The position numbers and the translations under genes are program-made. The notes under the pieces were generated by a model that searched no databases, was not told the DNA's origin, and worked only from the letters and a program-made list of their open reading frames with translations. Below, in pieces: positions 1,036-28,692 of a stretch of 32,000 nucleotides of DNA (position 1 is the first letter of the stretch; every line of letters starts with the position of its first letter). Origin of the DNA: Cylindrospermopsis raciborskii Cr2010 (GTDB taxonomy: Bacteria; Cyanobacteriota; Cyanobacteriia; Cyanobacteriales; Nostocaceae); NCBI RefSeq assembly GCF_003367075.2, contig NZ_CP065936.1, positions 2,910,001 through 2,942,000 of the forward strand, read 5' to 3'.

Positions 1036-1160
1036 TTTTAAGTATAACAGCTAGTCAAATAAATATGCAAGGGGTTTATAGAAAAAAATTAATAAAATTT
1101 GTAAATCTTTTCGACTTGTCAAGCATAAGTGAAAAATGAAAAATTTTACACCTTACAATT

Positions 1161-1351
1161 ACCCACGACAAAGCCAGTCGGTTTTTAACCTAGGAAGCTT
1201 TAAGACAATTAATTTCCTGTCTCCCCCACGGACAGTCTCCAGGTAGGGGTTAATTCAAACAATTATAGTTAATCCCATAGAGAGTGCTTCGCGATCGCCC
1301 TCTTGAATTAGAGATAAACTAGGATAAGATAATAAGCACATATTCATTGGT
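1161..1351 (+). other. left boundary of the paralog array: long-form 'linker' element joined directly to a short leader, with no 123-bp repeats
   Basis: acccacgacaaagccagtcgg...ctttaagacaattaatttcctgtctcccccacggacagtctccagg is followed at once by taggggttaattcaaacaattatagttaatccc. These are the same two junction sequences that flank every internal repeat block. The leader here is about 40 bp shorter than the internal leaders and keeps an intact HIP1 site (gcgatcgc, 1291-1298). Confidence 0.6.
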
Positions 1352-2901
1352 ATGAACCCCAAAAATCTCCCCCTGGGGATCAACACCCTAGATAAACTAC
1401 GCGGTAGCAACTGTATTTACGTGGACAAAACACGACTTGCCCTCCAGTTGATAAAACAGCCTGGAGCCTTCTTTTTGTCTCGTCCCCGACGTTTTGGCAA
1501 AAGTCTGTTTATAGATACCCTCAAGGAGATTTTTGAAGGGAATCAGAAATTATTTGAGGGGCTTTATATCCATGACCAATGGGATTGGAGTAGAAAATTC
1601 CCAGTGATTAAAATAGACTTTGCTGGTGGGGTATTAAAAAACCGACAAGAGCTGGATCTGCGCATACTGGATATTTTACACGAAAACGCAGAGTATCTGG
1701 GTGTGTCCTACGAGTCAACAGATATACCAGGAAAATTAGGAACTTTGATTCGTAAGGCCATGGCAAAATATGGAGAACGTGCGGTGGTGCTGGTGGATGA
1801 ATACGATAAACCCATCCTAGACAACATCGACAACCCACCTATTGCTGCTGAAATGAGAGAGGGACTCAAGAACCTATACTCGGTTCTCAAGCAACAGGAT
1901 GCCAACATCCAGTTCATCTTCATGACTGGAGTCACCAAATTCTCCAAAGTCAGCCTTTTTAGCGGGTAAATCAACTCACGGACATTACCATCAGTAGGGA
2001 TTTTTCCACCATTTGTGGTACACCCAGGAAGATTTTGGAGCAAAAACCTTTGCCAGCACTTGCAAGGGTAGACTGGGATAAACTGCGCCTCTGGTATAAT
2101 GGATACTCGTGGCGTGGCGATTCCGTTTATAACCCCTACGATATCTTACTGTTTATCCGTGAGGGAATGGAGTATGGCAACTACTGGTTTGAGACAGGAA
2201 ACCCCACCTTCTTAATTAAGCTATTTCAGACCAACTGCTACTTCCTCCCCAAATTAGAGCATCTAGAAGTAACCGAAGAGATTTTAAAGTCCTTTGAAAT
2301 AGAACGAATTAACCCAGTCACCCTGTTATTTCAATCTGGGTATTTGACCATTGAGAGCACCTTTACCGCTATGGAACGTTACATGTTCCGACTGAAAATT
2401 CCTAACCAGGAAGTGAAAGTCGCCTTGGGAGATCAATTAGTCAACGCCTACACGGACTTCGTTGAAGAGAAATTGGGTATTCAGAGACCCTTGTATGAAA
2501 ACTTATTTCAAGGTGATGTTAATGGATTTATCGACACAGTAAGACGCCTATTTGCTTCTATACCTTGGCGGAACTTTACCAACAATGACCTGGCTAATTT
2601 TGAGGGCTACTACGCTTCTGTGCTATATGCTTTCCTGAGTTCCTTAAATGCGCGCATCATTCCCGAAGATATCACCAACTATGGTCAAGCGGACATAACG
2701 GCCATGTTGGGTAATCATATTTACGTGATAGAAATCAAAGTAGTAGATGGGGAGAACGTAAAAGAGAACCTAGCCCTAAAACAAATTCGGGAATGTAACT
2801 ATGCGCAAAAGTATAGAGGAGAACCGGGGAGAACCGTTCATGAAGTGGGGTTGGTTTTTAGTCGCAGCAAACGTAACCTCATCCAAGCAGATTGGGAATA
2901 A
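1352..2901 (+). pseudogene. AAA-ATPase_like + PD-(D/E)XK (PDDEXK_9-type) protein, copy 1, frame-disrupted (cassettes A-A-H3)
   Basis: ORF pieces 1352-1969 and 2035-2901 are colinear with the intact 516-aa copy at 24733. Several 1-2 nt homopolymer indels are clustered at about 1966-2075, for example agcgggtaaatc versus agcgggttaaatc and gcaaaaacc versus gcaaacc. Confidence 0.75.
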
Positions 2902-2972
2902 ATTAAGATAAATATAATCAGTCACGATAAAACTGAATTAGGCTTTGAGACAATTAATTCCCTGTCTCCCCC

Positions 2973-3741
2973 ACGGACAGTCTCCAGGTGTGGGTTAATT
3001 CAACTAAATCACGGGTAATCCTTTGCAATCGCGTTTATATATATCCTGTGGGTTTGTTGGGTTTCGTTCCTCAACCCAACCTACGAAACTCTCCCACGGA
3101 CAGTCTCCAGGTAGGGGTTAATTCAACTAAATCACGGGTAATCCTTTGTAATCTCGTTTATATATATCCTGTGGGTTTGTTGGGTTTCGTTCCTCAACCC
3201 AACCTACGAAACTCTCCCACAGACAGTCTCCAGGTAGGGGTTAATTCAACTAAATCACGGGTAATCCTTTGTAATCTCGTTTATATATATCCTGTGGGTT
3301 TGTTGGGTTTCGTTCCTCAACCCAACCTACGAAACTCTCCCACAGACAGTCTCCAGGTAGGGGTTAATTCAACTAAATCACGGGTAATCCTTTGCAATCG
3401 CGTTTATATATATCCTGTGGGTTTGTTGGGTTTCGTTCCTCAACCCAACCTACGAAGCTCTCCCACAGACAGTCTCCAGGTAGGGGTTAATTCAACTAAA
3501 TCACGGGTAATCCTTTGCAATCGCGTTTATATATATCCTGTGGGTTTGTTGGGTTTCGTTCCTCAACCCAACCTACGAAGCTCTCCCACAGACAGTCTCC
3601 AGGTAGGGGTTAATTCAACTAAATCACGGGTAATCCTTTGCAATCGCGTTTATATATATCCTGTGGGTTTGTTGGGTTTCGTTCCTCAACCCAACCTACG
3701 AAGCTCTCCCACGGACAGTCTCCAGATGTGGGTTAATTCAA
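2973..3741 (+). repeat. 123-bp tandem repeat block 1, 6 full units
   Basis: The 'acggacag' phase marker occurs at 2973, 3096, 3219, 3342, 3465, 3588 and 3711, an exact 123-bp period. Each unit contains the hairpin GTTGGGTT-tcgttcctc-AACCCAAC. Confidence 0.97.
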
Positions 3742-3820
3742 ACAATTATAGTTAATCCCATAAGTAGTGCTTCGCAATCACTTTTAATTTAAAATAAATT
3801 CACATAAATAACCCCGGTGA

Positions 3821-3849
3821 TTGAATTAGAGATAAACTAAAATTAAGAT
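3821..3849 (+). promoter_or_regulatory. candidate sigma70-type promoter TTGAAT-N17-TAAGAT, 13 nt upstream of the ATG (representative of 9 copies)
   Basis: The same motif sits at ATG-42 to ATG-14 of the copies starting at 3863, 6132, 8268, 10540 and 15488. It has -10 TAGGAT at the copies starting at 12889, 19598, 21983 and 24733. Copy 1 has TTGAAT-N16-TAAGAT at 1303-1330. The motif is absent upstream of copy 9 (17081). This is motif matching only. Confidence 0.35.
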
Positions 3850-3862
3850 AATAAGCATTAGT

Positions 3863-5416
3863 ATGAACCCCAAAAATCTCCCGTTGGGAATCAACACCCT
3901 GAGTATGCTACGGGAAAACAATTGTGTCTATGTGGACAAAACCGAAATAGCTCACGGTCTGATACGCATTCCTGGACGCTTCTTTCTATCTCGTCCCCGA
4001 CGTTTCGGCAAAAGTTTGTTTATAGATACCCTCAAGGAGATTTTTGAGGGGAATCAGAAATTATTTGAGGGGCTTTATATCTATGGCCAATGGGACTGGA
4101 GTAGAAAATTCCCAGTGATTAAAATAGACTTTGCTGGTGGAGTATTAAAAAACCGACAAGAGCTGGACCAAAAAATTAATGGTATTTTTTTAAAAACTGC
4201 CCAATCCCTGGGAGTGGACTATGAACTAAAGGATATTCAAGGTCGTTTCGGGGAAATTATTGCGGGTGCATATCAACGATTTGGAGAAAGGACTGTGGTG
4301 CTGGTAGATGAATATGATAAACCCATCCTGGATAATATAGACAACCCACCCGTTGCTGCTGAAATGAGAGAGGGGCTCAAGAATCTATACTCAGTCCTCA
4401 AGGAGCAGGATGCCAACCTGCAGTTTGTCTTCATGACTGGAGTCACCAAATTCTCCAAAGTCAGCCTTTTTAGCGGTTTAAACCAACTCACGGACATCAC
4501 CATTGATACTAGATACTCTTCCATCTGCGGTTACACGGAAACCGACCTCACCGAATCCTTCGGAGAACATCTTGCAGGAGCAGATCGAGAAGCAGTACGC
4601 TCTTGGTATAATGGTTATAACTGGACAGGTTCCGAGAGCGTTTATAACCCCTACGATATCCTCATGTTTATCGATAAGGGCAAGATATTTCACAACTACT
4701 GGTTTGAAACCGGGAACCCGACGTTCCTGGTTAAATTATTTCAAGCCAACAGCTACTTCCTCCCTAACCTAGAGCATCTAGAGGTAACCGAGGAGATCTT
4801 AGAGTCCTTTGAAGTAGAACGGATAAACCCCGTCACCTTGTTATTTCAATCTGGGTATTTGACCATTGATCATACCTTTATCCGTCGCCATCGCTCCATG
4901 TTTGCTCTAAAAATACCCAACATGGAAGTTCGTCTGACATTAAATGACCATTTTATCAACGCGTATACGGAAATAGTAAATGAAAAGAGTGCTATCCAAG
5001 ATAGATTATATGAGTATATGTGTAGTGGAGATTTAGAATCAACAGTGAAAGCAGTAAAGCGTCTATTTGCAGGGATTCCCTGGCGGAACTTTACTAACAA
5101 TGACCTGGCTAATTTTGAGGGTTACTATGCTTCTGTGCTATATGCTTTCTTGAGTTCCTTAAATGCGCGCATCATTCCCGAAGATATCACCAACTATGGT
5201 CAAGCGGACATAACAGCCATCTTGGGTGATCATATTTACGTGATAGAAATCAAAGTAGTAGATGGGGACAATGTAAAAGAGAACCTAGCCCTAAAACAAA
5301 TACGGGAATGTAACTATGCACAAAAGTATAGGGGAGAACCAGGTAAAACTGTTCATGAAGTGGGGTTAGTTTTTAGTCGCAGCAAACGTAATCTCATTCA
5401 AGCAGATTGGAAATAA
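3863..5416 (+). CDS. AAA-ATPase_like + PD-(D/E)XK (PDDEXK_9-type) protein, copy 2, intact 517 aa (cassettes B-B-H1)
   Basis: The N-terminus has the family hallmark LPLGINT...YVDKT...FFLSRPRRFGKSLF (GKS at aa 49-51). A Walker-B-like VVLVDEYD lies at aa 145-152. The C-terminal nuclease core is E440...D449...E462-I-K464 (YGQADITA...YVIEIKV). Confidence 0.9.
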   Translation: MNPKNLPLGINTLSMLRENNCVYVDKTEIAHGLIRIPGRFFLSRPRRFGKSLFIDTLKEIFEGNQKLFEGLYIYGQWDWSRKFPVIKIDFAGGVLKNRQELDQKINGIFLKTAQSLGVDYELKDIQGRFGEIIAGAYQRFGERTVVLVDEYDKPILDNIDNPPVAAEMREGLKNLYSVLKEQDANLQFVFMTGVTKFSKVSLFSGLNQLTDITIDTRYSSICGYTETDLTESFGEHLAGADREAVRSWYNGYNWTGSESVYNPYDILMFIDKGKIFHNYWFETGNPTFLVKLFQANSYFLPNLEHLEVTEEILESFEVERINPVTLLFQSGYLTIDHTFIRRHRSMFALKIPNMEVRLTLNDHFINAYTEIVNEKSAIQDRLYEYMCSGDLESTVKAVKRLFAGIPWRNFTNNDLANFEGYYASVLYAFLSSLNARIIPEDITNYGQADITAILGDHIYVIEIKVVDGDNVKENLALKQIRECNYAQKYRGEPGKTVHEVGLVFSRSKRNLIQADWK

Positions 5417-5487
5417 GTTAAGATAAATATAATCACTCACGATAAAACCGAATTAGGCTTTGAGACAATTAATTCCCTGTCTCCCCC

Positions 5488-6010
5488 ACGGACAGTCTCC
5501 AGGTAGGGGTTAATTCAACTAAATCACGGGTAATCCTTTGCAATCGCGTTTATATATATCCTGTGGGTTTGTTGGGTTTCGTTCCTCAACCCAACCTACG
5601 AAGCTCTCCCACGGACAGTCTCCAGGTAGGGGTTAATTCAACTAAATCACGGGTAATCCTTTGCAATCGCGTTTATATATATCCTGTGGGTTTGTTGGGT
5701 TTCGTTCCTCAACCCAACCTACGAAGCTCTCCCACGGACAGTCTCCAGGTAGGGGTTAATTCAACTAAATCACGGGTAATCCTTTGCAATCGCGTTTATA
5801 TATATCCTGTGGGTTTGTTGGGTTTCGTTCCTCAACCCAACCTACGAAACTCTCCCACGGACAGTCTCCAGGTAGGGGTTAATTCAACTAAATCACGGGT
5901 AATCCTTTGCAATCGCGTTTATATATATCCTGTGGGTTTGTTGGGTTTCGTTCCTCAACCCAACCTACGAAGCTCTCCCACGGACAGTCTCCAGGTAGGG
6001 GTTAATTCAA
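5488..6010 (+). repeat. 123-bp tandem repeat block 2, 4 full units
   Basis: Phase marker at 5488 and 5980, a difference of 492 = 4 x 123. All junctions are of the 'gtagg' type. Confidence 0.97.
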
Positions 6011-6131
6011 ACAATTATAGTTAATCCCATAAGTAGTGCTTCGCAATCACTTTTAATTTAAAATAAATTCACATAAATAACCCCGGTGATTGAATTAGAG
6101 ATAAACTAAAATTAAGATAATAAGCATTAGT

Positions 6132-7675
6132 ATGAACCCCAAAAATCTCCCCCTGGGGATCAACACCCTAGATAAACTACGCGGTAGCAACTGTATTTAT
6201 GTGGACAAAACACCGCTTGCCCTCCAGTTAATAAAACAGCCTGGAGCCTTCTTTCTATCTCGTCCCCGACGTTTTGGTAAAAGTCTGTTTCTAGATACCC
6301 TCAAGGAGATTTTTGAGGGGAATCAGAAATTATTTGAGGGGCTTTATATCTATGACCAATGGGACTGGAGTAGAAAATTCCCAGTGATTAAAATAGATTT
6401 TGCTGGTGGGGTATTAAAAAACCGACAAGAGCTGGATCTGCGAATACTGGATATTTTACACGAAAACGCAGAGTATCTGGGTGTGTCCTACGAGTCAACT
6501 GATATACCGGGAAAATTAGGAACTTTGATTCGTAAGGCCATGGCAAAATATGGAGAACGTGCGGTGGTGCTAGTGGATGAATACGACAAACCCATCCTAG
6601 ACAATATAGACAACCCACCTATTGCTGCTGAAATGAGAGAGGGGCTCAAGAATCTATACTCCGTTCTCAAGCAACAGGATGCCAACCTGCAGTTTGTCTT
6701 CATGACTGGAGTCACCAAATTCTCCAAAGTCAGCCTTTTTAGCGGTTTAAACCAACTCACGGACATCACCATTGATACTAGATACTCTTCCATCTGCGGT
6801 TACACGGAAACCGACCTCACCGAATCCTTCGGAGAACATCTTGCAGGAGCAGATCGAGAAGCGGTACGCTCTTGGTATAATGGTTATAACTGGACGGGTT
6901 CCGAGAGCGTTTATAACCCCTACGACATCCTCATGTTTATCGATAAGGGCAAGATATTTCACAACTACTGGTTTGAAACCGGGAACCCGACGTTCCTGGT
7001 TAAATTATTTCAAGCCAACAGCTACTTCCTCCCTAACCTAGAGCATCTAGAGGTAACCGAGGAGATCTTAGAGTCCTTTGAAGTAGAACGGATAAACCCC
7101 GTCACCTTGTTATTTCAATCTGGGTATTTGACCATTGATCATACCTTTATCCGTCGCCATCGCCCAAGTTTGTCTAAAAATACCCAACATGAAGTTCGTC
7201 TGACATTAAATGACCATTTTATCAACGCGTATACGGAAATAGTAAATGAAAAGAGTGCTATCCAAGATAGATTATATGAGTATTGTGTAGTGAGATTTAG
7301 AATCAACAGTGAAGCAGTAAAGCGTCTATTTGCAGGGATTCCCTGGCGGAACTTTACTAACAATGACCTGCTAATTTTGAGGGTTACTATGCTTCTGTGC
7401 TATATGCTTTCTTGAGTTCCTTAAATGCGCGATCATTCGAAGATATCACCAACTATGGTCAAGCGGACATAACAGCCATCTTGGGTGATCATATTTACGT
7501 GATAGAAATCAAAGTAGTAGATGGGGACAGTGTAAAAGAGAACCTAGCCCTAAAACAAATACGGGAATGTAACTATGCACAAAAGTATAGGGGAGAACCA
7601 GGTAAAACTGTTCATGAAGTGGGGTTAGTTTTTAGTCGCAGCAAACGTAATCTCATTCAAGCAGATTGGGAATAA
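6132..7675 (+). pseudogene. AAA-ATPase_like + PD-(D/E)XK protein, copy 3, frame-disrupted (cassettes A-A-H1)
   Basis: ORF pieces 6132-7415 and 7397-7675. An indel patch at about 7160-7440 gives a net -10 nt relative to 1554 nt. The rest is near-identical to the intact copies. Confidence 0.75.
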
Positions 7676-7746
7676 GTTAAGATAAATATAATCACTCACG
7701 ATAAAACCGAATTAGGCTTTGAGACAATTAATTCCCTGTCTCCCCC

Positions 7747-8146
7747 ACGGACAGTCTCCAGGTAGGGGTTAATTCAACTAAATCACGGCTAATCCTTTGC
7801 AATTGCGTTTATATATATCCTGTGGGTTTGTTGGGTTTTGTTCCTCAACCCAACCTACGAAGCTCCCCCACGGACAGTCTCCAGGTAGGGGTTAATTCAA
7901 CTAAATCACGGGTAATCCTTTGCAATCGCGTTTATATATATCCTGTGGGTTTGTTGGGTTTTGTTCCTCAACCCAACCTACGAAGCTCTCCCACGGACAG
8001 TCTCCAGATGTGGGTTAATTCAACTAAATCACGGCTAATCCTTTGCAATCGCGTTTATATATATCCTGTGGGTTTGTTGGGTTTCGTTCCTCAACCCAAC
8101 CTACGAAACTCTCCCACGGAGAGTCTCCAGGTAGGGGTTAATTCAA
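7747..8146 (+). repeat. 123-bp tandem repeat block 3, 3 full units
   Basis: Phase marker at 7747 and 8116, a difference of 369 = 3 x 123. Confidence 0.97.
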
Positions 8147-8267
8147 ACAATTATAGTTAATCCCATAAGTAGTGCTTCGCAATCACTTTTAATTTAAAAT
8201 AAATTCACATAAATAACCCCGGTGATTGAATTAGAGATAAACTAAAATTAAGATAATAAGCATTAGT

Positions 8268-9821
8268 ATGAACCCCAAAAATCTCCCCCTGGGGATCAAC
8301 ACCCTAGATAAACTACGCGGTAGCAACTGTATTTATGTGGACAAAACACCGCTTGCCCTCCAGTTAATAAAACAGCCTGGAGCCTTCTTTTTGTCTCGTC
8401 CCCGACGTTTTGGTAAAAGTCTGTTTATAGATACCCTCAAGGAGATTTTTGAGGGGAATCAGAAGTTATTTGAGGGGCTTTATATCTATGACCAATGGGG
8501 CTGGAGTAGAAAATTCCCAGTGATTAAAATAGATTTTGCTGGTGGGGTATTAAAAAACCGACAAGAGCTGGACCAAAAAATTAATGGTATTTTTTTAAAA
8601 ACTGCCCAATCCCTGGGAGTGGACTATGAACTAAAGGATATTCAAGGTCGTTTCGGGGAAATCATTGCTGGTGCATACCAACGATTTGGAGAAAGAACAG
8701 TGGTGCTGGTAGATGAATATGATAAACCCATCCTAGACAACATCGACAACCCAGCTATTGCTGCTGAAATGAGAGAGGGACTCAAAAACCTATACTCCGT
8801 CCTCAAGGAGCAGGATGCCAACCTGCAGTTTGTCTTCATGACTGGAGTCACCAAATTCTCCAAAGTCAGCCTTTTTAGCGGTTTAAACCAACTCACGGAC
8901 ATCACCATTGATACTAGATACTCTTCCATCTGCGGTTACACGGAAACCGACCTCACCGAATCCTTCGGAGAACATCTTGCAGGAGCAGATCGAGAAGCGG
9001 TACGCTCTTGGTATAATGGTTATAACTGGACGGGTTCCGAGAGCGTTTATAACCCCTACGACATCCTCATGTTTATCGATAAGGGCAAGATATTTCACAA
9101 CTACTGGTTTGAAACCGGAACCCGACGTTCCTGGTTAAATTATTTCAAAGCCAACAGCTACTTCCTCCCTAACCTAGAGCATCTAGGAGGTAACCGGAAT
9201 CTTAGAGTCAGCCTTGAGTAGAACGGATAACCCCGTCACCTTGTTATTTCAATCTTGGGTATTTGACCATTGATCATACCTTTATCCCGTCGCCATCGCT
9301 CCATGTTTGCTCTAAAATACCCAACATGGAAGTTCGTCTGACATTAAATGACCATTTTATCAACGGTATAGCGGAAATAGTAAATGAAAAGAGTGCTATC
9401 CAAGAAGATAGATTATATGAGTATATGTGTGTAGTGGAGATTTAGAATCAACAGTGAAAGCAGTAAAGCGTCTATTTGCAGGGATTCCTGGAACTTTACT
9501 AACAATGACCTGGCTAATTTTGAGGGTTACTATGCTTCTGTGCTATATGCTTTCTTGAGTTCCTTAAATGCGCGCATCATTCCCGAAGATATCACCAACT
9601 ATGGTCAAGCGGACATAACAGCCATCTTGGGTGATCATATTTACGTGATAGAAATCAAAGTAGTAGATGGGGACAGTGTAAAAGAGAACCTAGCCCTAAA
9701 ACAAATACGGGAATGTAACTATGCACAAAAGTATAGGGGAGAACCAGGTAAAACTGTTCATGAAGTGGGGTTAGTTTTTAGTCGCAGCAAACGTAATCTC
9801 ATTCAAGCAGATTGGGAATAA
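8268..9821 (+). pseudogene. AAA-ATPase_like + PD-(D/E)XK protein, copy 4, frame-disrupted (cassettes A-B-H1)
   Basis: ORF pieces 8268-9221, 9263-9445 and 9540-9821. There are many small indels at about 9115-9500. The total length is still 1554 nt, so the indels compensate each other. Confidence 0.75.
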
Positions 9822-9892
9822 GTTAAGATAAATATAATCACTCACGATAAAACCGAATTAGGCTTTGAGACAATTAATTCCCTGTCTCCCCC

Positions 9893-10418
9893 ACGGACAG
9901 TCTCCAGGTAGGGGTTAATTCAACTAAATCACGGGTAATCCTTTGCAATCGCGTTTATATATATCCGTGGGTTTGTTGGGTTTCGTTCCTCAACCCAACC
10001 TACGAAGCTCTCCCACGGACAGTCTCCAGGTAGGGGTTAATTCAACTAAATCACGGGTAATCCTTTGCAATCGCGTTTATATATATCCTGTGGGTTTGTT
10101 GGGTTTTGTTCCTCAACCCAACCTACGAAGCTCTCCCACGGACAGTCTCCAGGTGTGGGTTAATTCAACTAAATCACGGGTAATCCTTTGCAATCGCATT
10201 TATATATATCCTGTGGGTTTGTTGGGTTTCGTTCCTCAACCCAACCTACGAAGCTCCCCCACGGACAGTCTCCAGGTAGGGGTTAATTCAACTAAATCAC
10301 GGGTAATCCTTTGCAATCGCGTTTATATATATCCTGTGGGTTTGTTGGGTTTTGTTCCTCAACCCAACCTACGAAACTGTCTCCCCCACGGACAGTCTCC
10401 AGGTAGGGGTTAATTCAA
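9893..10418 (+). repeat. 123-bp tandem repeat block 4, 4 units
   Basis: Phase marker at 9893 and 10388, a difference of 495 = 4 x 123 + 3. The extra 3 nt come from a 1-nt deletion at about 9966 and a last unit that ends with the linker-type 'ctgtctcccccacgg' instead of 'ctctcccacgg'. Confidence 0.95.
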
Positions 10419-10539
10419 ACAATTATAGTTAATCCCATAAGTAGTGCTTCGCAATCACTTTTAATTTAAAATAAATTCACATAAATAACCCCGGTGATTG
10501 AATTAGAGATAAACTAAAATTAAGATAATAAGCATTAGT

Positions 10540-12093
10540 ATGAACCCCAAAAATCTCCCCCTGGGGATCAACACCCTAGATAAACTACGCGGTAGCAACT
10601 GTATTTATGTGGACAAAACACCGCTTGCCCTCCAGTTAATAAAACAGCCTGGAGCCTTCTTTTTGTCTCGTCCCCGACGTTTTGGTAAAAGTCTGTTTCT
10701 AGATACCCTCAAGGAGATTTTTGAGGGGAATCAGAAATTATTTGAGGGGCTTTATATCCATGACCAATGGGACTGGAGTAGAAAATTCCCAGTGATTAAA
10801 ATAGATTTTGCTGGTGGGGTATTAAAAAACCGACAAGAGCTGGACCAAAAAATTAATGGTATTTTTTTAAAAACTGCCCAGTCCTTGGGAGTGGACTATG
10901 AACTAGAGGACATTCAAGGTCGTTTCGGAGAAATCATTGCTGGTGCATATCAACGATTTGGAGAAAGGACTGTGGTGCTGGTAGATGAATATGATAAACC
11001 CATCCTAGACAACATCGACAACCCAGCTATTGCTGCTGAAATGAGAGAGGGACTCAAAAACCTATACTCCGTCCTCAAGGAGCAGGATGCCAACCTGCAG
11101 TTTGTCTTCATGACTGGAGTCACCAAATTCTCCAAAGTCAGCCTTTTTAGCGGTTTAAACCAACTCACGGACATCACCATTGATACTAGATACTCTTCCA
11201 TCTGCGGTTACACGGAAACCGACCTCACCGAATCCTTCGGAGAACATCTTGCAGCAGCAGATCGAGAAGCGGTACGCTCTTGGTATAATGGTTATAACTG
11301 GACAGGTTCCGAGAGCGTTTATAACCCCTACGATATCCTCATGTTTATCGATAAGGGCAAGATATTTCACAACTACTGGTTTGAGACAGGTAGTCCCAGT
11401 TTTCTAGTCAAGCTATTCCAAGCCAAGTGCTACTTCCTCCCCAACCTAGAGCATCTAGAGGTAACCGAGGAGATCTTAGAGTCCTTTGAAGTAGAACGAA
11501 TTAACCCAGTTACCTTGTTATTTCAATCTGGGTATTTGACCATTGAGAGCACCTTTACCGCTATGGAACGTTACATGTTCCGACTGAAAATCCCCAACCG
11601 GGAGGTAAAAGTCGCCTTGGGAGATCAATTAGTCAACGCCTACACGGACTTCGTTGAAGAGAAATTGGGTATTCAGAGACCCTTGTATGAAAACTTATTT
11701 CAAGGTGATGTTAATGGATTTATCGACACAGTAAGACGCCTATTTGCTTCTATACCTTGGCGTAACTTTACCAACAATGACCTGGCTAATTTTGAGGGCT
11801 ACTACGCTTCTGTGCTATATGCTTTCTTGAGTTCCTTAAATGCGCGCATCATTCCCGAAGATATCACCAACTATGGTCAAGCGGACATAACGGCCATGTT
11901 GGGTAATCATATTTACGTGATAGAAATCAAAGTAGTAGATGGGGAGAACGTAAAAGAGAACCTAGCCCTAAAACAAATACGGGAATGTAACTATGCGCAA
12001 AAGTATAGGGGAGAACCGGGGAGAACCGTTCATGAAGTGGGGTTGGTTTTCAGTCGCAGCAAACGTAACCTCATCCAAGCAGATTGGGAATAA
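10540..12093 (+). CDS. AAA-ATPase_like + PD-(D/E)XK protein, copy 5, intact 517 aa (cassettes A-B-H2)
   Basis: Full-length ORF with the same motifs as copy 2. Confidence 0.9.
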   Translation: MNPKNLPLGINTLDKLRGSNCIYVDKTPLALQLIKQPGAFFLSRPRRFGKSLFLDTLKEIFEGNQKLFEGLYIHDQWDWSRKFPVIKIDFAGGVLKNRQELDQKINGIFLKTAQSLGVDYELEDIQGRFGEIIAGAYQRFGERTVVLVDEYDKPILDNIDNPAIAAEMREGLKNLYSVLKEQDANLQFVFMTGVTKFSKVSLFSGLNQLTDITIDTRYSSICGYTETDLTESFGEHLAAADREAVRSWYNGYNWTGSESVYNPYDILMFIDKGKIFHNYWFETGSPSFLVKLFQAKCYFLPNLEHLEVTEEILESFEVERINPVTLLFQSGYLTIESTFTAMERYMFRLKIPNREVKVALGDQLVNAYTDFVEEKLGIQRPLYENLFQGDVNGFIDTVRRLFASIPWRNFTNNDLANFEGYYASVLYAFLSSLNARIIPEDITNYGQADITAMLGNHIYVIEIKVVDGENVKENLALKQIRECNYAQKYRGEPGRTVHEVGLVFSRSKRNLIQADWE

Positions 12094-12164
12094 ATTAAGA
12101 TAAATATAATCAGTCACGATAAAACTGAATTAGGCTTTGAGACAATTAATTCCCTGTCTCCCCC

Positions 12165-12767
12165 ACGGACAGTCTCCAGATGTGGGTTAATTCAACTAAA
12201 TCACGGGTAATTCTTTGCAATCGCGTTTATATATATCCTGTGGGTTTGTTGGGTTTCGTTCCTCAACCCAACCTACGAAGCTCCCCCACGGACAGTCTCC
12301 AGGTAGGGGTTAATTCAAATAAATCACGGGTAATCCTTTGCAATCGCGTTTATATATATCCTGTGGGTTTGTTGGGTTTCGTTCCTCAACCCAACCTACG
12401 AAGCTCTCCCACGGACAGTCTCCAGATGTGGGTTAATTCAAATAAATCACGGGTAATCCTTTGCAATCGCGTTTATATATATCCTGTGGGTTTGTTGGGT
12501 TTCGTTCCTCAACCCAACCTACGAAGCTCTCCCACGGACAGTCTCCAGGTGTGGGTTAATTCAAATAAATCACGGGTAATCCTTTGCAATCGCGTTTATA
12601 TATATCCTGTGGGTTTGTTGGGTTTCGTTCCTCAACCCAACCTACGAAGCTCTCCCACGGACAGTCTCCAGGTGTGGGTTAATTCAAACAATTATAGTTG
12701 GGTTTCGTTCCTCAACCCAACCTACGAAGCTCTCCCACGGACAGTCTCCAGGTGTGGGTTAATTCAA
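12165..12767 (+). repeat. 123-bp tandem repeat block 5, 4 full units plus one aberrant 80-bp unit
   Basis: Phase marker at 12165, 12288, 12411, 12534 and 12657, then at 12737 (+80). The aberrant unit joins the leader start 'aattcaaacaattatagtt' to the middle of the hairpin 'gggtttcgttcc'. Units in this block carry the 'caaataaatc' variant. Confidence 0.95.
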
Positions 12768-12888
12768 ACAATTATAGTTAATCCCATAAGTAGTGCTTCG
12801 CAATCACTTTTAATTTAAAATAAATTCACATAAATAAGCCCGGTGATTGAATTAGAGATAAACTAGAGTTAGGATAATAAGCATTAGT

Positions 12889-14439
12889 ATGAACCCCAAA
12901 AATCTCCCGTTGGGAATCAACACCCTGAGTATGCTACGGGAAAACAATTGTGTCTATGTGGACAAAACCGAAATAGCTCACGGTCTGATCCGCATTCCTG
13001 GACGCTTCTTTCTATCTCGTCCCCGACGTTTCGGCAAAAGTCTGTTTATAGATACCCTCAAGGAGATTTTTGAGGGGAATCAAAAATTATTTGAGGGGCT
13101 TTATATCCATGACCAATGGGACTGGAGTAGAAAATTCCCAGTGATTAAAATAGATTTTGCTGGTGGGGTATTAAAAAACCGACAAGAGCTGGACCAAAAA
13201 ATTAATGGTATTTTTTTAAAAACTGCCCAATCCCTGGGAGTGGACTATGAACTAGAGGACATTCAAGGTCGTTTCGGAGAAATCATTGCTGGTGCATACC
13301 AACGATTTGGAGAAAGAACAGTGGTGCTGGTGGATGAATACGACAAACCCATCCTAGACAACATCGACAACCCAGCTATTGCTGCTGAAATGAGAGAGGG
13401 ACTCAAAAACCTATACTCAGTCCTCAAGGAACAGGATGCCAACATCCAGTTCATCTTCATGACTGGAGTCACCAAATTCTCCAAAGTCAGCCTTTTCAGT
13501 GGGTTAAATCAACTCACCGACATTACCATCAGTAGGGACTTTTCCACCATTTGTGGGTACACCCAGGAAGATTTGGAGCAAACCTTTGCCCAGCACTTGC
13601 AAGGGGTAGACTGGGATAAACTGCGCCTCTGGTATAATGGATACTCGTGGCGTGGCGATTCCGTTTATAACCCCTACGATATCTTACTGTTTATCCGTGA
13701 GGGAATGGAGTATGGCAACTACTGGTTTGAGACAGGAAACCCCACCTTCTTAATTAAGCTATTTCAGACCAACTGCTACTTCCTCCCCAAATTAGAGCAT
13801 CTAGAAGTAACCGAAGAGATTTTAAAGTCCTTTGAAATAGAACGAATTAACCCAGTCACCCTGTTATTTCAATCTGGGTATTTGACCATTGAGAGCACCT
13901 TTACTGCTATGGAACGTTACATGTTCCGACTGAAAATTCCCAACCGGGAGGTAAAAGTCGCCTTGGGAGATCAATTAGTCAACGCCTACACGGACTTCGT
14001 TGAAGAGAAATTGGGTATTCAGAGACCCTTATATGAAAACTTATTTCAAGGCGATGTTAATGGATTTATAGACACAGTAAGACGCCTATTTGCTTCTATA
14101 CCTTGGCGAAACTTTACCAACAATGACCTGGCTAATTTTGAGGGCTACTACGCTTCTGTGCTATATGCTTTCTTGAGTTCCTTAAATGCGCGCATCATTC
14201 CCGAAGATATCACCAACTATGGTCAAGCGGACATAACGGCCATGTTGGGTAATCATATTTACGTGATAGAAATCAAAGTAGTAGATGGGGAGAACGTAAA
14301 AGAGAACCTAGCCCTAAAACAAATACGGGAATGTAACTATGCGCAAAAGTATAGGGGAGAACCAGGTAAAACTGTTCATGAAGTGGGGTTAGTTTTTAGT
14401 CGCAGCAAACGTAATCTCATTCAAGCAGATTGGGAATAA
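12889..14439 (+). CDS. AAA-ATPase_like + PD-(D/E)XK protein, copy 6, intact 516 aa (cassettes B-B-H3)
   Basis: Full-length ORF with the same motifs as copy 2. Confidence 0.9.
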   Translation: MNPKNLPLGINTLSMLRENNCVYVDKTEIAHGLIRIPGRFFLSRPRRFGKSLFIDTLKEIFEGNQKLFEGLYIHDQWDWSRKFPVIKIDFAGGVLKNRQELDQKINGIFLKTAQSLGVDYELEDIQGRFGEIIAGAYQRFGERTVVLVDEYDKPILDNIDNPAIAAEMREGLKNLYSVLKEQDANIQFIFMTGVTKFSKVSLFSGLNQLTDITISRDFSTICGYTQEDLEQTFAQHLQGVDWDKLRLWYNGYSWRGDSVYNPYDILLFIREGMEYGNYWFETGNPTFLIKLFQTNCYFLPKLEHLEVTEEILKSFEIERINPVTLLFQSGYLTIESTFTAMERYMFRLKIPNREVKVALGDQLVNAYTDFVEEKLGIQRPLYENLFQGDVNGFIDTVRRLFASIPWRNFTNNDLANFEGYYASVLYAFLSSLNARIIPEDITNYGQADITAMLGNHIYVIEIKVVDGENVKENLALKQIRECNYAQKYRGEPGKTVHEVGLVFSRSKRNLIQADWE

Positions 14440-14510
14440 GTTAAGATAAATATAATCACTCACGATAAAACTGAATTAGGCTTTGAGACAATTAATTCCC
14501 TGTCTCCCCC

Positions 14511-14611
14511 ACGGACAGTCTCCAGGTGTGGGTTAATTCAACTAAATCACGGGTAATCCTTTGCAATCGCATTTATATATATCCTGTGGGTTTGTTGGGT
14601 TTCGTTCCTCA
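14511..14611 (+). repeat. single truncated 123-bp unit (about 0.8 unit), broken inside its hairpin
   Basis: The unit runs normally up to '...gggtttcgttcctca'. It then continues as gene sequence 'gaggaagatatttcgcaac', which corresponds to codon ~273 of the paralog. Confidence 0.9.
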
Positions 14612-15350
14612 GAGGAAGATATTTCGCAACTACTGGTTTGAGACAGGTGGTCCCAGCTTTCTAGTCAAGCTATTCCAAGCCAAGTGCTACTTCCTCCCCA
14701 ACCTAGAGCATCTAGAGGTAACCGAGGAGATCTTAGAGTCCTTTGAAATAGAACGAATTAACCCAGTCACCCTGTTATTTCAATCTGGGTATTTGACCAT
14801 TGAGAGCACCTTTACCGCTATGGAACGTTACATGTTCCGACTGAAAATCCCCAACCGGGAGGTAAAAGTCGCCTTGGGAGATCAATTAGTCAACGCCTAC
14901 ACGGACTTCGTTGAAGAGAAATTGGGTATTCAGAGACCCTTGTATGAAAACTTATTTCAAGGTGATGTTAATGGATTTATCGACACAGTAAGACGCCTAT
15001 TTGCTTCTATACCTTGGCGTAACTTTACCAACAATAACCTGGCTAATTTCGAGGGCTACTACGCTTCTGTGCTATATGCTTTCCTGAGTTCCTTAAATGC
15101 GCGCATCATTCCCGAAGATATCACCAATTACGGTCAAGCGGACATAACGGCCATGTTGGGTAATCATATTTACGTGATAGAAATCAAAGTAGTAGATGGG
15201 GACAATGTAAAAGAGAACCTAGCCCTAAAACAAATACGGGAATGTAACTATGCGCAAAAGTATAGAGGAGAACCGGGGAGAACCGTTCATGAAGTAGGCT
15301 TGGTTTTCAGTCGCAGCAAACGTAACCTCATTCAAGCAGATTGGGAATAA
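14612..15350 (+). pseudogene. AAA-ATPase_like + PD-(D/E)XK protein, copy 7, 5'-truncated (C-terminal ~245 codons, H2-type; nuclease domain only)
   Basis: Colinear with aa ~273-517 of copy 8. It lacks the ATPase half and the leader. The open frame of the repeat happens to be fused in frame, giving the 274-aa track ORF 14526-15350 with a GTG start. Confidence 0.8.
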
Positions 15351-15487
15351 ATGTGGGTTAATTCAAACAATTATAGTTAATCCCATAAGTAGTGCTTCGC
15401 AATCACTTTTAATTTAAAATAAATTCACATAAATAACCCCGGTGATTGAATTAGAGATAAACTAAAATTAAGATAATAAGCATTAGT

Positions 15488-17041
15488 ATGAACCCCAAAA
15501 ATCTCCCCCTGGGGATCAACACCCTAGATAAACTACGCGGTAGCAACTGTATTTATGTGGACAAAACACCGCTTGCCCTCCAGTTAATAAAACAGCCTGG
15601 AGCCTTCTTTTTGTCTCGTCCCCGACGTTTTGGTAAAAGTCTGTTTATAGATACCCTCAAGGAGATTTTTGAAGGGAATAAGAAATTATTTGAGGGGCTT
15701 TATATCCATGACCAGTGGGACTGGAGTAGAAAATTCCCAGTGATTAAAATAGATTTTGCTGGTGGGGTATTAAAAAACCGACAAGAGCTGGATCTGCGCA
15801 TACTGGATATTTTGCACGAAAACGCAGAGCATCTGGATGTGTCATACAAGTCAACTGATATACCGGGAAAATTGGGAACTTTGATTCGTAAGGCCATGGC
15901 AAAATATGGACAACGTGCTGTGGTGCTGGTGGATGAATACGACAAACCCATCCTAGACAATATAGACAACCCACCTATTGCTGCTGAAATGAGAGAGGGG
16001 CTCAAGAATCTATACTCCGTTCTCAAGCAACAGGATGCCAACATCCAGTTCGTCTTCATGACTGGAGTCACCAAATTCTCCAAAGTCAGCCTTTTTAGTG
16101 GTTTAAACCAACTCACGGACATCACCATTGATACCAGATACTCCTCCATCTGCGGTTACACGGAAACCGACCTCACCGAATCCTTCGGAGAACATCTTGC
16201 AGGAGCAGATCGAGAAGCGGTACGCTCTTGGTATAATGGTTATAACTGGACAGGTTCCGAGAGCGTTTACAACCCCTACGATATCCTCATGTTTATCGAT
16301 AAGAGGAAGATATTTCGCAACTACTGGTTTGAGACAGGTAGTCCCAGTTTTCTAGTCAAGCTATTCCAAGCCAAGTGCTACTTCCTCCCCAACCTAGAGC
16401 ATCTAGAGGTAACCGAGGAGATCCTAGAGTCCTTTGAAGTAGAACGGATAAACCCAGTTACCTTGTTATTTCAATCTGGGTATTTGACCATTGAGAGCAC
16501 CTTTACCGCTATGGAACGTTACATGTTCCGACTGAAAATCCCCAACCGGGAGGTAAAAGTCGCCTTGGGAGATCAATTAGTCAACGCCTACACGGACTTC
16601 GTTGAAGAGAAATTGGGTATTCAGAGACCCTTATATGAAAACTTATTTCAAGGCGATGTTAATGGATTTATAGACACAGTAAGACGCCTATTTGCTTCTA
16701 TACCTTGGCGGAACTTTACTAACAATGACCTGGCTAATTTTGAGGGTTACTATGCTTCTGTGCTATATGCTTTCTTGAGTTCCTTAAATGCGCGCATCAT
16801 TCCCGAAGATATCACCAACTATGGTCAAGCGGACATAACAGCCATCTTAGGTGATCATATTTACGTGATAGAAATCAAAGTAGTAGATGGGGACAATGTA
16901 AAAGAGAACCTAGCCCTAAAACAAATTCGGGAATGTAACTATGCGCAAAAGTATAGAGGAGAACCGGGGAGAACCGTTCATGAAGTGGGGTTGGTTTTCA
17001 GTCGCAGCAAACGTAACCTCATTCAAGCAGATTGGGAATAA
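15488..17041 (+). CDS. AAA-ATPase_like + PD-(D/E)XK protein, copy 8, intact 517 aa (cassettes A-A-H2)
   Basis: Full-length ORF with the same motifs as copy 2. Confidence 0.9.
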   Translation: MNPKNLPLGINTLDKLRGSNCIYVDKTPLALQLIKQPGAFFLSRPRRFGKSLFIDTLKEIFEGNKKLFEGLYIHDQWDWSRKFPVIKIDFAGGVLKNRQELDLRILDILHENAEHLDVSYKSTDIPGKLGTLIRKAMAKYGQRAVVLVDEYDKPILDNIDNPPIAAEMREGLKNLYSVLKQQDANIQFVFMTGVTKFSKVSLFSGLNQLTDITIDTRYSSICGYTETDLTESFGEHLAGADREAVRSWYNGYNWTGSESVYNPYDILMFIDKRKIFRNYWFETGSPSFLVKLFQAKCYFLPNLEHLEVTEEILESFEVERINPVTLLFQSGYLTIESTFTAMERYMFRLKIPNREVKVALGDQLVNAYTDFVEEKLGIQRPLYENLFQGDVNGFIDTVRRLFASIPWRNFTNNDLANFEGYYASVLYAFLSSLNARIIPEDITNYGQADITAILGDHIYVIEIKVVDGDNVKENLALKQIRECNYAQKYRGEPGRTVHEVGLVFSRSKRNLIQADWE

Positions 17042-17080
17042 ATTAAGATAAACTAGGATAATAAGCACATATTCTTTATT

Positions 17081-18632
17081 ATGAACCCCAAAAATCTCCC
17101 CCTGGGGATCAACACCCTAGATAAACTACGCGGTAGCAACTGTATTTACGTGGACAAAACACGACTTGCACTCCAGTTGATAAAACAACCTGGAGCCTTC
17201 TTTCTATCTCGTCCGCGACGTTTTGGCAAAAGTCTGTTTATAGATACCCTCAAGGAGATTTTTGAAGGGAATAAGAAATTATTTGAGGGGCTTTATATCC
17301 ATGACCAGTGGGACTGGAGTAGAAAATTCCCAGTGATTAAAATAGATTTTGCTGGTGGAGTATTAAAAAACCGACAAGAGCTGGACCAAAAAATTAATGG
17401 TATTTTTTTAAAAACTGCCCAGTCCCTGGGAGTGGACTATGAACTAGAGGACATTCAAGGTCGTTTCGGAGAAATCATTGCTGGTGCATACCAACGATTT
17501 GGAGAAAGAACAGTGGTGCTGGTGGATGAATACGACAAACCCATCCTAGACAACATCGACAACCCAGCTATTGCTGCTGAAATGAGAGAGGGACTCAAAA
17601 ACCTATACTCAGTCCTCAAGGAACAGGATGCCAACATCCAGTTCATCTTCATGACTGGAGTCACCAAATTCTCCAAAGTCAGCCTTTTCAGTGGGTTAAA
17701 TCAACTCACCGACATTACCATCAGTAGGGACTTTTCCACCATTTGTGGGTATCACCCAGGAAGATTTGGAGCAAACCTTTCGCCCAGCACTTGCAAGGGG
17801 TAGACTGGGATAAACTGCGCCTCTGGTATAATGGATACTCGTGGCGTGGCGATTCCGTTTATAACCCCTACGATATCTTACTGTTTATCCGTGAGGGAAT
17901 GGAGTATGGCAACTACTGGTTTGAGACAGGAAACCCCACCTTCTTAATTAAGCTATTTCAGACCAACTGCTACTTCCTCCCCAAATTAGAGCATCTAGAA
18001 GTAACCGAAGAGATTTTAAAGTCCTTTGAAATAGAACGAATTAACCCAGTCACCCTGTTATTTCAATCTGGGTATTTGACCATTGAGAGCACCTTTACTG
18101 CTATGGAACGTTACATGTTCCGACTGAAAATTCCCAACCAGGAAGTGAAAGTCGCCTTGGGAGATCAATTAGTCAACGCCTACACGGACTTCGTTGAAGA
18201 GAAATTGGGTATTCAGAGACCCTTGTATGAAAACTTATTTCAAGGTGATGTTAATGGATTTATCGACACAGTAAGACGCCTATTTGCTTCTATACCTTGG
18301 CGGAACTTTACTAACAATGACCTGGCTAATTTTGAGGGTTACTATGCTTCTGTGCTATATGCTTTCTTGAGTTCCTTAAATGCGCGCATCATTCCCGAAG
18401 ATATCACCAACTATGGTCAAGCGGACATAACAGCCATCTTAGGTGATCATATTTACGTGATAGAAATCAAAGTAGTAGATGGGGACAATGTAAAAGAGAA
18501 CCTAGCCCTAAAACAAATACGGGAATGTAACTATGCGCAAAAGTATAGAGGAGAACCAGTAAAACTGTTCATGAAGTGGGGTTGGTTTTTAGTCGCAGCA
18601 AACGTAATCTCATTCAAGCAGATTGGGAATAA
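17081..18632 (+). pseudogene. AAA-ATPase_like + PD-(D/E)XK protein, copy 9, frame-disrupted (cassettes A-B-H3)
   Basis: ORF pieces 17081-17803 and 17743-18642. Indels lie at about 17750-17800 and in a second patch from about 18555 that continues into the non-coding linker and the first repeat unit (to about 18790). The gene is only 39 nt downstream of copy 8, with no repeat block and no TTGAAT box between them. Confidence 0.75.
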
Positions 18633-28676: not shown

Positions 28677-28692
28677 TTGTGGAATTTTACTT

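Follow-up and report, generated by a model that had tools for sequence, protein, structure and literature searches.

How gene-bearing units of about 1.78 kb and gene-less units of 123 bp came to stand in one tandem array with common end sequences was the question raised by this locus of Cylindrospermopsis raciborskii, on which the literature search found no paper. The initial annotation had suggested either the autonomous/miniature relationship of MITEs or a cassette array with a common recombination site. The analysis of the window (the whole stretch of 32,000 nt) and of related sequences pointed instead to a REP/BIME-like mosaic minisatellite combined with tandem gene amplification, both arising through unequal crossing-over and replication slippage, to which a probability of about 0.7 was given.

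Unit map of the locus

The junction motif, in which GACAGTCTCCAG abuts RTRKGGGTTAATTCAA, occurred 52 times in the window; in its general form, GACAGTCTCCAG followed by (G/A)T(A/G)(G/T)GGGTTAATTCAA, the count was likewise 52. It divided 11 gene-bearing long units (about 1.75-1.78 kb) from 38 short units (mini-units) of about 123 bp. The mini-unit was modular and contained J (palindrome-containing, spanning the junction), B (with a HIP1-like site), C (a short AT tract) and one REP. Modules A and T are identified by their sequences in the list below. The layout of 2941-3862 was a linker end (2941-2987), six 123-bp units (2988-3725) and a leader (3726-3862).

1160..1242, plus strand: one composite spacer element ahead of the first gene unit, made up of module A ("acccacgacaaagccagtcgg...") and J-left
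1243..26372, plus strand: concatemer that comprises, according to the unit map, 11 full-length gene units (1.66-1.78 kb), a gene copy truncated at its 5' end (14613-15350) and nine ~123-bp mini-unit arrays
2941..2987, plus strand: linker end after gene copy 1, with J-left as a truncated palindrome (gagaca...tgtctc) and then cccccacggacagtctccag
2988..3725, plus strand: array 1, six 123-bp mini-units
2988..3110, plus strand: modules of the first mini-unit, J-right (2988-3021), B-end (3022-3033), C (3034-3044), REP with flanks (3045-3087) and J-left (3088-3110)
3056..3084, minus strand: the first REP hairpin of the window, which holds 41 copies, reading 5'-GTAG GTTGGGTT GAGGAACGA AACCCAAC on that strand
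3726..3862, plus strand: leader of gene copy 2, with a J-right variant, degenerate B (gcttcgcaatcac), T module (ttttaatttaaaataaattcacata) and the gene-specific upstream region
3863..5416, plus strand: gene copy 2, 517 aa, AAA-ATPase_like plus PD-(D/E)XK nuclease
5503..5994, plus strand: array 2, 4 mini-units
7762..8130, plus strand: array 3, 3 mini-units
9908..10402, plus strand: array 4, 4 mini-units, among them variants of 122 and 127 bp, the longer of which terminates in linker-type CTGTCTCCCCCACGG
12180..12751, plus strand: array 5, 4 mini-units plus an 80-bp hybrid (12672-12751)
14526..14612, plus strand: mini-unit cut within the REP loop and joined to mid-gene sequence
15339..15368, plus strand: gene stop codon joined straight to ATGTGGGTTAATTCAAAC, the entire linker gone
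17030..17060, plus strand: linker-leader fusion via AGATAAA microhomology, the entire spacer gone
18712..19460, plus strand: array of 6 mini-units, one of 131 bp with an 8-bp ctacgaag duplication
21231..21845, plus strand: array of 5 mini-units
23617..24595, plus strand: array of 8 mini-units, one of 118 bp
26284..26372, plus strand: linker past the last gene copy, A hairpin intact, J stopping after ccctgtct
30508..30735, plus strand: diverged relic of a gene 3' end, A, and J-left with the full palindrome; J-right ends after GTGTGGG
31930..32000, plus strand: beginning of another tandem array, its 129-bp units composed of A, B, C and REP without J

Units ran head to tail with partial repeat copies at the array ends, and irregular short units of 80, 118, 122, 126, 127 and 131 bp were recorded. 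The same A+J sequence lay upstream of the first gene in CP073250.1 (L121 7794-7871). The proposed concatemer of long and short units was borne out in that one boundary block was common to both; the further statement that all are joined at the same junction was not, since three joins in 14526-18711 differ.

The amplified gene combined PF09820 (AAA-ATPase_like) with PF08011 (PDDEXK_9). PADLOC and NCBIfam gave it no assignment, and it is not a recognised transposase. The gene units were mosaics with 79-95% identity and the same upstream region in all 11 long units, and 11 to at least 17 gene copies were present per array. A dynamin-like GTPase gene and an 83-aa ORF lay upstream, and PD-DExK, DUF29 and Uma2 genes downstream. 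Tandem arrays of the gene family were found at several loci, the others having 27-60-bp spacers with neither J nor mini-units. The search of a phage collection gave no match.

Shared ends and dispersed modules

The last 22 bp of the unit differed from the linker end at a single position (score 39; shuffle mean 14.5, with 0/1000 shuffles as high), which agreed with the earlier claim for the right ~21 bp. For the left ~58 bp, which had been said to align with the leader, the first 16 bp were identical to the leader start, while the similarity over positions 17-58 was weak when taken alone (reached by 10/1000 shuffles). The alignment nevertheless established real homology over 17-58, because the repeat-type aaatcacgggtaat and the leader-type gagtgcttcgcaatcgc occur together in a C. 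curvispora spacer. In the alignment, gcgatcgc, gcaatcac and gcaatcgc also proved correct as the degenerate HIP1 series.

Shared ends of this kind are expected, since every tandem array with partial terminal copies matches its flanks. The block in common measures 38 bp in this locus, and the break point between CCAG and G is an arbitrary choice of phase. The 38-bp junction block was nearly invariant in its 52 copies, while the genes diverged by up to 21%. Such uniformity would be explicable by recent amplification or gene conversion, and equally by a functional site. When the C/T variant located 19 nt to the left of the junction was tallied against ATGT on the right, 5/9 ATGT junctions came after the C variant, a hand count that is uninformative on the crossover point.

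The centre of the unit had been taken as a hairpin module specific to the repeat. This view was not sustained: the module is a dispersed REP hairpin, and a 66-nt block including it was 89% identical between the 123-bp units and those of the nearby 129-bp array. All REP copies in the window (41/41) read GTAG-GTTGGGTT-GAGGAACGA-AACCCAAC on the minus strand, and alternating orientation was absent. An unpaired 5' GTAG is followed by an 8-bp stem, predicted by folding, and a 9-nt loop. Other genomes, from cyanobacteria, Desulfobacterota, Poribacteria and further groups, contained exact matches to the 25-mer hairpin in at least 120 stretches. CTAC, which is GTAG on the opposite strand, followed almost every time, and inverted doublets were frequent; a literature query with the hairpin sequence gave only unrelated primer matches.

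The REP adjoined Y1_Tnp/RAYT genes at five loci (Nostoc L018, L009; Desulfobacteraceae L129; Anaerolineae L130; Halotia L132). Sequence identical to the window REP flanked the RAYT genes in L018, L009 and L129, and the stem changes in L130 were compensatory. The RAYT proteins of the five loci matched Pfam PF01797 and carried DHLH...YIHYNP motifs; the NCBI family name for the RAYT protein is "REP-associated tyrosine transposase". The central hairpin is identified as a GTAG-tagged REP, and the cognate RAYT of its family is conserved across phyla. The REP/RAYT pair is documented as almost unchanged in several phyla. Within Cylindrospermopsis, dispersed REP copies were few in the ~400 kb examined (L121 4046-4190; plasmid 65479), and tblastn detected no RAYT in this ~400 kb, one whole plasmid included, nor was one present among the best 120 homologues. 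Three distinct REP-containing tandem arrays, with periods of 123, 129 and 83 bp, were nevertheless found inside ~45 kb in C. raciborskii.

The other modules were dispersed as well. Solo copies of J and B occurred on both chromosome and plasmid in Cylindrospermopsis, and a 146-kb C. curvispora plasmid carried about 40 copies of B and four of J-left+B. The full J palindrome GAGACAGGGAATTGATTCCCTGTCTC was present in C. curvispora, and J could form a hairpin, CCCAC(G)...(G)TGGG. In the dispersed J-left copies the palindrome was preserved through compensatory changes, which indicates that something recognises J-left; these dispersed copies ran straight into B without J-right. The check proposed earlier, a search for solo units outside the array, was positive for the long form, with a solo B-T-A-J-B-T copy at L123 18940-19200 and copies on the C. 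curvispora plasmid. The exact 123-bp unit was found inside the gene array only, and its specific motif in only 3 metagenome contigs, all in gene-array context.

The 129-bp array lacked J and did not lie beside the amplified gene; 7 of its copies were present in CP073250.1. Mini-units of 148 and 228 bp also existed, in other phases. The A and J hairpins were partly lost from C. raciborskii spacers, and in C. curvispora J accompanied the gene array at another place on the chromosome. Support for J as a divergent copy of A was marginal in the shuffle test (25/2000 for one copy, 265/2000 for another).

Copy-number variation and breakpoints

Copy number was polymorphic at both levels of repetition. 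The successive spacers of the window held 6, 4, 3, 4, 5, 0, 6, 5 and 8 mini-units, and those of CP073250.1 held 2, 2, 2, 2, 0, 0, 2... and 8, 5, 2, 13, so that the number per spacer spanned 0-13 depending on the strain. Sequence variants clustered among neighbouring mini-units, and the order and duplications of gene units differed between two strains. At 26284..26372, the L128 strain has one 148-bp mini-unit and the window strain none, with a 26-bp direct repeat flanking the difference.

Scars of illegitimate recombination were also observed. In the 80-bp hybrid (12672-12751), the leader start was joined to REP at a GTT microhomology, and further breakpoints away from the junction were seen in the fusion of REP loop to mid-gene sequence, the AGATAAA deletion, the 8-bp duplication and the 127-bp unit. 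One deletion (15350/15351) ended exactly at the junction between CCAG and G, within a microhomology of +/- 2 bp.

These results favored simple unequal crossing-over, which the initial annotation had named as its alternative: the strain-dependent copy numbers, the local variant clusters, the microhomology breakpoints off the junction and the 148- and 228-bp units fitted it best. The building blocks REP, J and B are dispersed elements, mobile in type, which supports part of the initial interpretation but not an autonomous/miniature or cassette mechanism. The 123-bp repeat is a REP-centred minisatellite, a head-to-tail iterated mosaic of small dispersed repeats from Cylindrospermopsis genomes, probably derived from a longer ancestor (148-228 bp) that lost internal sequence lying between short direct repeats. 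A longer form of the same mosaic, A-J-B-T, forms the spacer before every copy of the ATPase/PD-(D/E)XK nuclease gene, and short and long units have both ends in common for this reason. Unequal crossing-over of the RecA type, together with replication slippage, is inferred to make both repetition levels grow, shrink and reshuffle. With their near-identical sequence, the mini-arrays (0.25-1.6 kb) may serve as portable homology for gene copies only 79-95% identical to one another, and would therefore permit gain, loss and reordering of whole gene units with the reading frames undamaged. None of the observations requires a new mechanism.

Competing explanations and related repeat systems

It is unlikely that the head-to-tail clusters were made, rather than by general recombination, by a RAYT (an HUH tyrosine transposase) acting on single-stranded fork DNA or by stalling of the fork where the hairpin forms. 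In favor of this reading, the REP is genuine and has cognate RAYTs elsewhere, three REP arrays lie close together in C. raciborskii, and a possible link between REP amplification and clustering has been raised (PMC3733652); however, the searches of ~400 kb of Cylindrospermopsis sequence and of the best 120 homologues yielded no RAYT, RAYT-linked REPs are usually inverted doublets (REPINs) rather than 123-bp direct repeats, and the gene-level repeats occur without REP. The window REP resembles GTAG-REP/RAYT systems and REPINs in its 5' GTAG and stem-loop, in being a dispersed extragenic hairpin (with inverted doublets in other genomes) and in flanking RAYT genes, and differs from them in the single REP per 123-bp unit, with all 41 copies direct in one locus, and in the RAYT-free ~400 kb. 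Large-loop cyanobacterial REPs have been described, with which the loop-variable relatives of the window REP agree, as have REP "singletons reiterated in tandem with flanking DNA" (PMC3733652).

A site-specific cassette system, in which J is attC-like and a dedicated recombinase excises and integrates long and short units as circles, would accommodate the uniform 38-bp block, the location of J within a potential hairpin, the deletion terminating at the junction and the passage of J with the array to a different C. curvispora locus. It is nonetheless highly improbable: many rearrangement breakpoints lie elsewhere than at the junction, the 148- and 228-bp mini-units are out of phase, and dispersed J continues into B with J-right absent. 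In the window and two other genomes, the 10 kb on each side contained no integrase or recombinase, the flanks held no transposase, and every cassette would hold the same gene with its own upstream region, so that the integron-like reading was not supported. Integron cassette arrays are similar in that gene units are set apart by a recurring structured site, but their genes are diverse and mostly promoterless, each with its own attC, whereas all 11 long units here are paralogues of one gene, the "site" is an identical 38-bp block rather than a variable attC, the scars are of homology type and there is no integrase. We consider it very unlikely, too, that an enzyme dedicated to the J/REP-bounded units acts on them, whether a RAYT-type HUH transposase or the ATPase/PD-(D/E)XK nuclease encoded in the array. 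On that view the locus would be a cassette system that amplifies and shuffles itself and diversifies a defence-like gene family, and the 123-bp units would be cassettes without a gene.

That the gene unit is autonomous and the 123-bp unit its deletion derivative, moved in trans by the ATPase-nuclease, is scarcely credible, and the MITE relationship proposed in the initial annotation was not supported. The common ends of long and short units, the PD-(D/E)XK nuclease domain encoded by the gene and the large tandem arrays of the family at several loci are in its favor. Against these, there are neither terminal inverted repeats nor target-site duplications (the unit ends, GTAGGGGTTAATTC... and ...GGACAGTCTCCAG, do not form an inverted pair), the exact 123-bp form was found only inside the gene array in the sequences searched, the shared ends are dispersed repeats that are also present without the gene, the centre is an unrelated REP with no gene remnant, and the gene is not a recognised transposase. 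The likeness to MITEs such as the cyanobacterial Nezha thus extends to a small non-coding hairpin unit and to end sequences common to a longer unit; the differences lie in the ends, the lack of dispersal and the partner gene just mentioned.

Retention of the arrays for a function is quite unlikely, although it would be compatible with unequal crossing-over and slippage. The hairpins might stabilise or insulate transcripts in 3' UTRs, where E. coli REPs act, or the arrays might bind proteins or be translated as a 41-residue repeat. The unit folds into an extended hairpin with an outer stem CCTGTGGG/CCCACGG round REP, and the periods of 123, 129 and 228 are all multiples of three with one open frame. 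However, folding gives the unit a z-score of only about -1, spacers without mini-units exist, C. raciborskii spacers have lost part of the A and J hairpins, and the scan of 2850-3900 found no promoter or terminator consensus in the units. Rfam at gathering thresholds gave no match and the tRNA scan none. A coding role for the open frame through the arrays was rejected, with variable sites distributed 6/3/7 by codon position and hence no coding signal; assignment of the array ORF to a protein family was also rejected, the Pfam scores being additive and spurious with no passing stretch. Because the periods are multiples of three and one frame is open, gene callers annotate the arrays as proteins, and "hypothetical proteins" of up to 522 residues result.

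The preferred reading, a mosaic minisatellite with tandem gene amplification, has its nearest relatives in BIMEs and REP clusters. E. coli BIME-2 likewise consists of REP and short conserved motifs in variable tandem number between genes, and here J, B, C and REP were regularly repeated 0-13 times per spacer. BIMEs differ in alternating REP orientation and much shorter periods, against a uniform orientation and 123-129 bp here, and in that the present arrays alternate with an amplified 1.78-kb gene unit. In Salmonella, REP-mediated duplications represent tandem gene amplification through unequal crossing-over at short flanking repeats. The head-to-tail order, partial end copies, strain-variable number and mosaic paralogues are features of such amplification, whereas the array here is stable and old (79-95% identity), reaches 11 to at least 17 copies and has a nested second level of repeats in its spacers. 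Elhai et al. are said to have described, in 2008, small dispersed repeats in heterocystous cyanobacteria. B (HIP1-like, ~40 copies per 146 kb), J and A are similarly very small, dispersed and mutually nested; HIP1 itself is the subject of PMC5861425. Small dispersed repeats in long tandem arrays interleaved with a gene family were not found in the literature searched.

The locus provides a clear natural case of two nested levels of tandem repetition, in which REP-type repeats supply diverged paralogues with long tracts of perfectly matching sequence. The maintenance and reshuffling of 11 to at least 17 copies of one ATPase-nuclease gene in a small (~3.9 Mb) cyanobacterial genome may be explained in this way.

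Layout of the repeat array and the amplified gene

The repeat-bearing spacer was composed of the following parts on the forward strand:

2941-2987, linker end (intergenic)
2988-3725, six 123-bp units
3726-3862, leader of the next gene

The junction motif, GACAGTCTCCAG followed by (G/A)T(A/G)(G/T)GGGTTAATTCAA, was found 52 times in the window, and the stretches between motifs fell into three classes: 11 long, 38 short and a few irregular ones. The long stretches (gene copy plus spacer) were mostly 1745-1777 bp, two of them, at 4186 and 6128 bp, being larger composites, and the short ones (gene-less mini-units) were mostly 123 bp, with one each of 80, 118, 122, 126, 127 and 131 bp. Mini-units were 97-100% identical to each other and their variants were grouped in adjacent units. 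The initial annotation had described the mini-unit as a miniature of the gene unit which shares both of its termini. In shuffle-tested alignments the ends of the short units did match the linker end and the leader start: the final 22 bp matched the linker end with a score reached in 0 of 1000 shuffles, and the first 16 bp matched the start of the leader, while the unit-leader similarity past position 16 was weak taken alone (10 of 1000 shuffles). The termini common to short and long units are real.

Each long unit encoded a product of about 517 aa with PF09820 (AAA-ATPase_like) and PF08011 (PD-(D/E)XK nuclease), to which PADLOC and NCBIfam gave no assignment and whose closest proteins were from C. 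raciborskii (96-97% identity). The complete genome CP073250.1 has this locus too, between the same flanks and with at least 17 gene copies. The structure is not an assembly artefact, since it recurs in that independently assembled genome and in three metagenome contigs. The 11 gene units in the window (1243-26372) were 79-95% identical and formed block mosaics of two sequence types, and their linkers and mini-units were near-identical. The mosaicism is suggestive of recurrent exchange between two ancestral paralogues, or of diversifying selection acting on the nuclease family. Two gene copies (1960-2050; 17740-18700) carried several one-base homopolymer length differences leading to frameshifts, which resemble long-read sequencing error, with real pseudogenes being possible. 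A cluster of small genes of nuclease type (26456-31624) separated the last gene copy from a relic of a gene 3' end. Besides one DUF29 gene and two Uma2 genes, it contained three 203-205-aa paralogues matching the cas-associated PD_DExK model of PADLOC; a 21-bp tandem repeat (30334-30438, 5 copies) in a Uma2 gene C-terminus encoded AEQEKLR heptads.

A five-copy array of the same gene family was located at a different chromosomal site in C. curvispora. Arrays of this family in LYXA01000001.1 and NPIK01000002.1 had spacers of 27-60 bp, in which J, the module spanning the junction, and mini-units were absent; they represent a second locus of the family, with at least 8 genes per array in an alternating two-gene unit.

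Modular composition of the 123-bp unit

In the phase of the initial annotation, the 123-bp unit consisted of J-right (34 bp), the end of the HIP1-like module B (12 bp), the AT tract C (11 bp), a hairpin with flanks (43 bp) and the end of J-left (23 bp). At least 120 stretches from other genomes contained the hairpin 25-mer GTTGGGTTTYGTTCCTCAACCCAAC, and the matches listed came from many cyanobacteria as well as Desulfobacterales, Poribacteria, Brocadia and one gammaproteobacterium. In these listed matches, CTAC nearly always followed the hairpin, i.e. GTAG stood 5' of it on the opposite strand, and the hairpin was often paired with a loop-variable partner as an inverted doublet. In Nostoc (stretch L018) and in L009 the same hairpin adjoined genes that carry the HUH/Y1 motifs DHLH...YIHYNP (Pfam Y1_Tnp). 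Homologues of that gene had the exact or a variant hairpin beside them in Halotia and in two MAGs, one of Desulfobacteraceae and one of Anaerolineae, the latter with compensatory stem changes. The NCBI name for this family is REP-associated tyrosine transposase (RAYT); its members from cyanobacteria and Desulfobacterales were 64-68% identical. A REP is defined as a 5' GT[AG]G plus a hairpin (PMC6006769, PMC3733652), and the central hairpin of the 123-bp unit is a REP. Since it is dispersed, of REP type and next to RAYT genes, its earlier description as specific to the repeat was wrong in the wider sense. A REP of 25-29 nt was identical among cyanobacteria, Desulfobacterota, Anaerolineae, Poribacteria and Brocadia (L001-L120, L129-L132), along with the 64-68% identical RAYT; cross-phylum co-conservation or transfer to such a degree is unusual.

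The C. curvispora spacer (L122) was longer and better preserved than that of C. raciborskii, and contained:

Module A, cacgacaaaaccagtcggttGAAAaccgact...
Module J-left, palindrome GAGACAGGGAATTGATTCCCTGTCTC, then CCCCACGGACAGTCTCCAG
Module J-right, GCGTGGGTTAATTTAACCAAATCACGGGTAATTGG
Module B, CGAGCTCCTGTAGGGAGTGCTTCGCAATCGCCC
Module T, ttttaatttaaaataaattcacata
Gene-specific upstream region, last part of the spacer, after T

This spacer holds both "repeat-type" and "leader-type" sequence (alignment A1), and the repeat-leader homology suspected earlier is therefore proven. On the 146-kb C. curvispora plasmid NZ_CP060823.1, B occurred in about 40 copies as a HIP1-bearing small repeat of about 35 nt, TTCGCGATCTCCCATAGGGAGTGCTGCGCAATCGCCC, and J-left+TTGCTAGTCC+B in four copies, with the J-left palindrome kept by compensatory substitutions. 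Across dispersed copies (NZ_CP060823.1 27369, 40837 and 74418; the C. curvispora spacer; 19060 of L123, a stretch of CP073250.1) the palindrome read GAGAC(A/C/T)GGGAATT(G/C)ATTCCC(T/G/A)GTCTC, its symmetry being perfect via compensatory changes; it appears to be under selection, by a protein dimer or by a hairpin. In C. raciborskii, a solo B-T-A-J-B-T copy lay about 7 kb downstream of the array (L123 18940-19200). The non-REP remainder of the unit is likewise assembled from dispersed modules, and the 123-bp form in its exact shape was found only in array context.

A second tandem array in CP073250.1 (L123 17040-17990; period 129 bp, 7 copies), annotated there as a 284-aa protein, consisted of A, B, C and REP without J, lay away from the ATPase gene, and shared a 66-nt block with the 123-bp unit at 89% identity. 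The last bases of the window already belong to it:

31930-32000, start of the 129-bp array

An 83-bp REP repeat was present upstream in two copies. Mini-units also came in longer forms: one of 228 bp in C. curvispora, and one of 148 bp that a metagenome strain (L128) carried at the array's 3' end; the window lacked the 148-bp unit at that site, and the difference was bracketed by a 26-bp direct repeat.

Copy-number change and origin of the units

The number of mini-units per spacer was 6, 4, 3, 4, 5, 0, 6, 5 and 8 in the window, and 2, 2, 2, 2, 0, 0, 2... and 8, 5, 2, 13 in CP073250.1. The zero counts mean that gene-to-gene junctions without a mini-unit exist. The order and duplication of gene units also differed between the two strains, the first copy being the only positional orthologue. 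The units are thus polymorphic in copy number. A deletion at 15350/15351 ended at the junction, and several joins in the window broke away from it:

12672-12751, 80-bp hybrid, leader joined to REP at GTT
14612/14613, unit broken inside the REP loop and joined to mid-gene
about 17050, spacer deletion via AGATAAA microhomology
19330-19460, 8-bp duplication
127-bp unit, linker-type end

The simplest account has four parts. The gene spacer holds a mosaic of small dispersed repeats that is REP/BIME-like; this mosaic would have been iterated in tandem and trimmed to the 123-bp form by deletions between short direct repeats; gene and spacer would have been amplified in tandem; and both levels may at present vary through unequal crossing-over and slippage, a recombination pathway that we infer, with the near-identical mini-arrays as tracts of homology that link diverged paralogues. 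The initial mechanistic reading stands only in part: the termini are shared, because they descend from one spacer mosaic and because the phase of a tandem repeat is arbitrary, and they are not transposon ends or an att site.

Cluster formation driven by a RAYT, whose genes adjoin the hairpin in other genomes, has a low probability. No integrase or transposase was found in the flanks of the array in the window or in two other genomes. The same low probability is given to a site-specific cassette mechanism, to be set beside both the junction-ending deletion and the joins elsewhere, and to a selected RNA or DNA function. The extended hairpin into which the 123-bp unit folded had a modest z-score, about -1; folding was stronger in the C. 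curvispora spacer (z -3.2) and in the 129-bp unit (z -3.8). Rfam, tRNA and promoter/terminator scans were all negative. The array periods (123, 129 and 228) are each divisible by three, and one reading frame stays open through the arrays, which is why they are annotated as proteins; 123-bp arrays were called as hypothetical proteins of 194-522 aa (L123 1026-1979, 3787-4371, 8325-9893). A coding reading of this frame was rejected: it matched no family genuinely and its substitutions did not follow a coding-type pattern. The database entries for such proteins are probably spurious.

The repeat and gene-array structure is real and well described, and it belongs to known kinds: its repeats are of the same kind as REP clusters and BIME-like mosaics, and the locus is of the same kind as other tandem gene amplifications.
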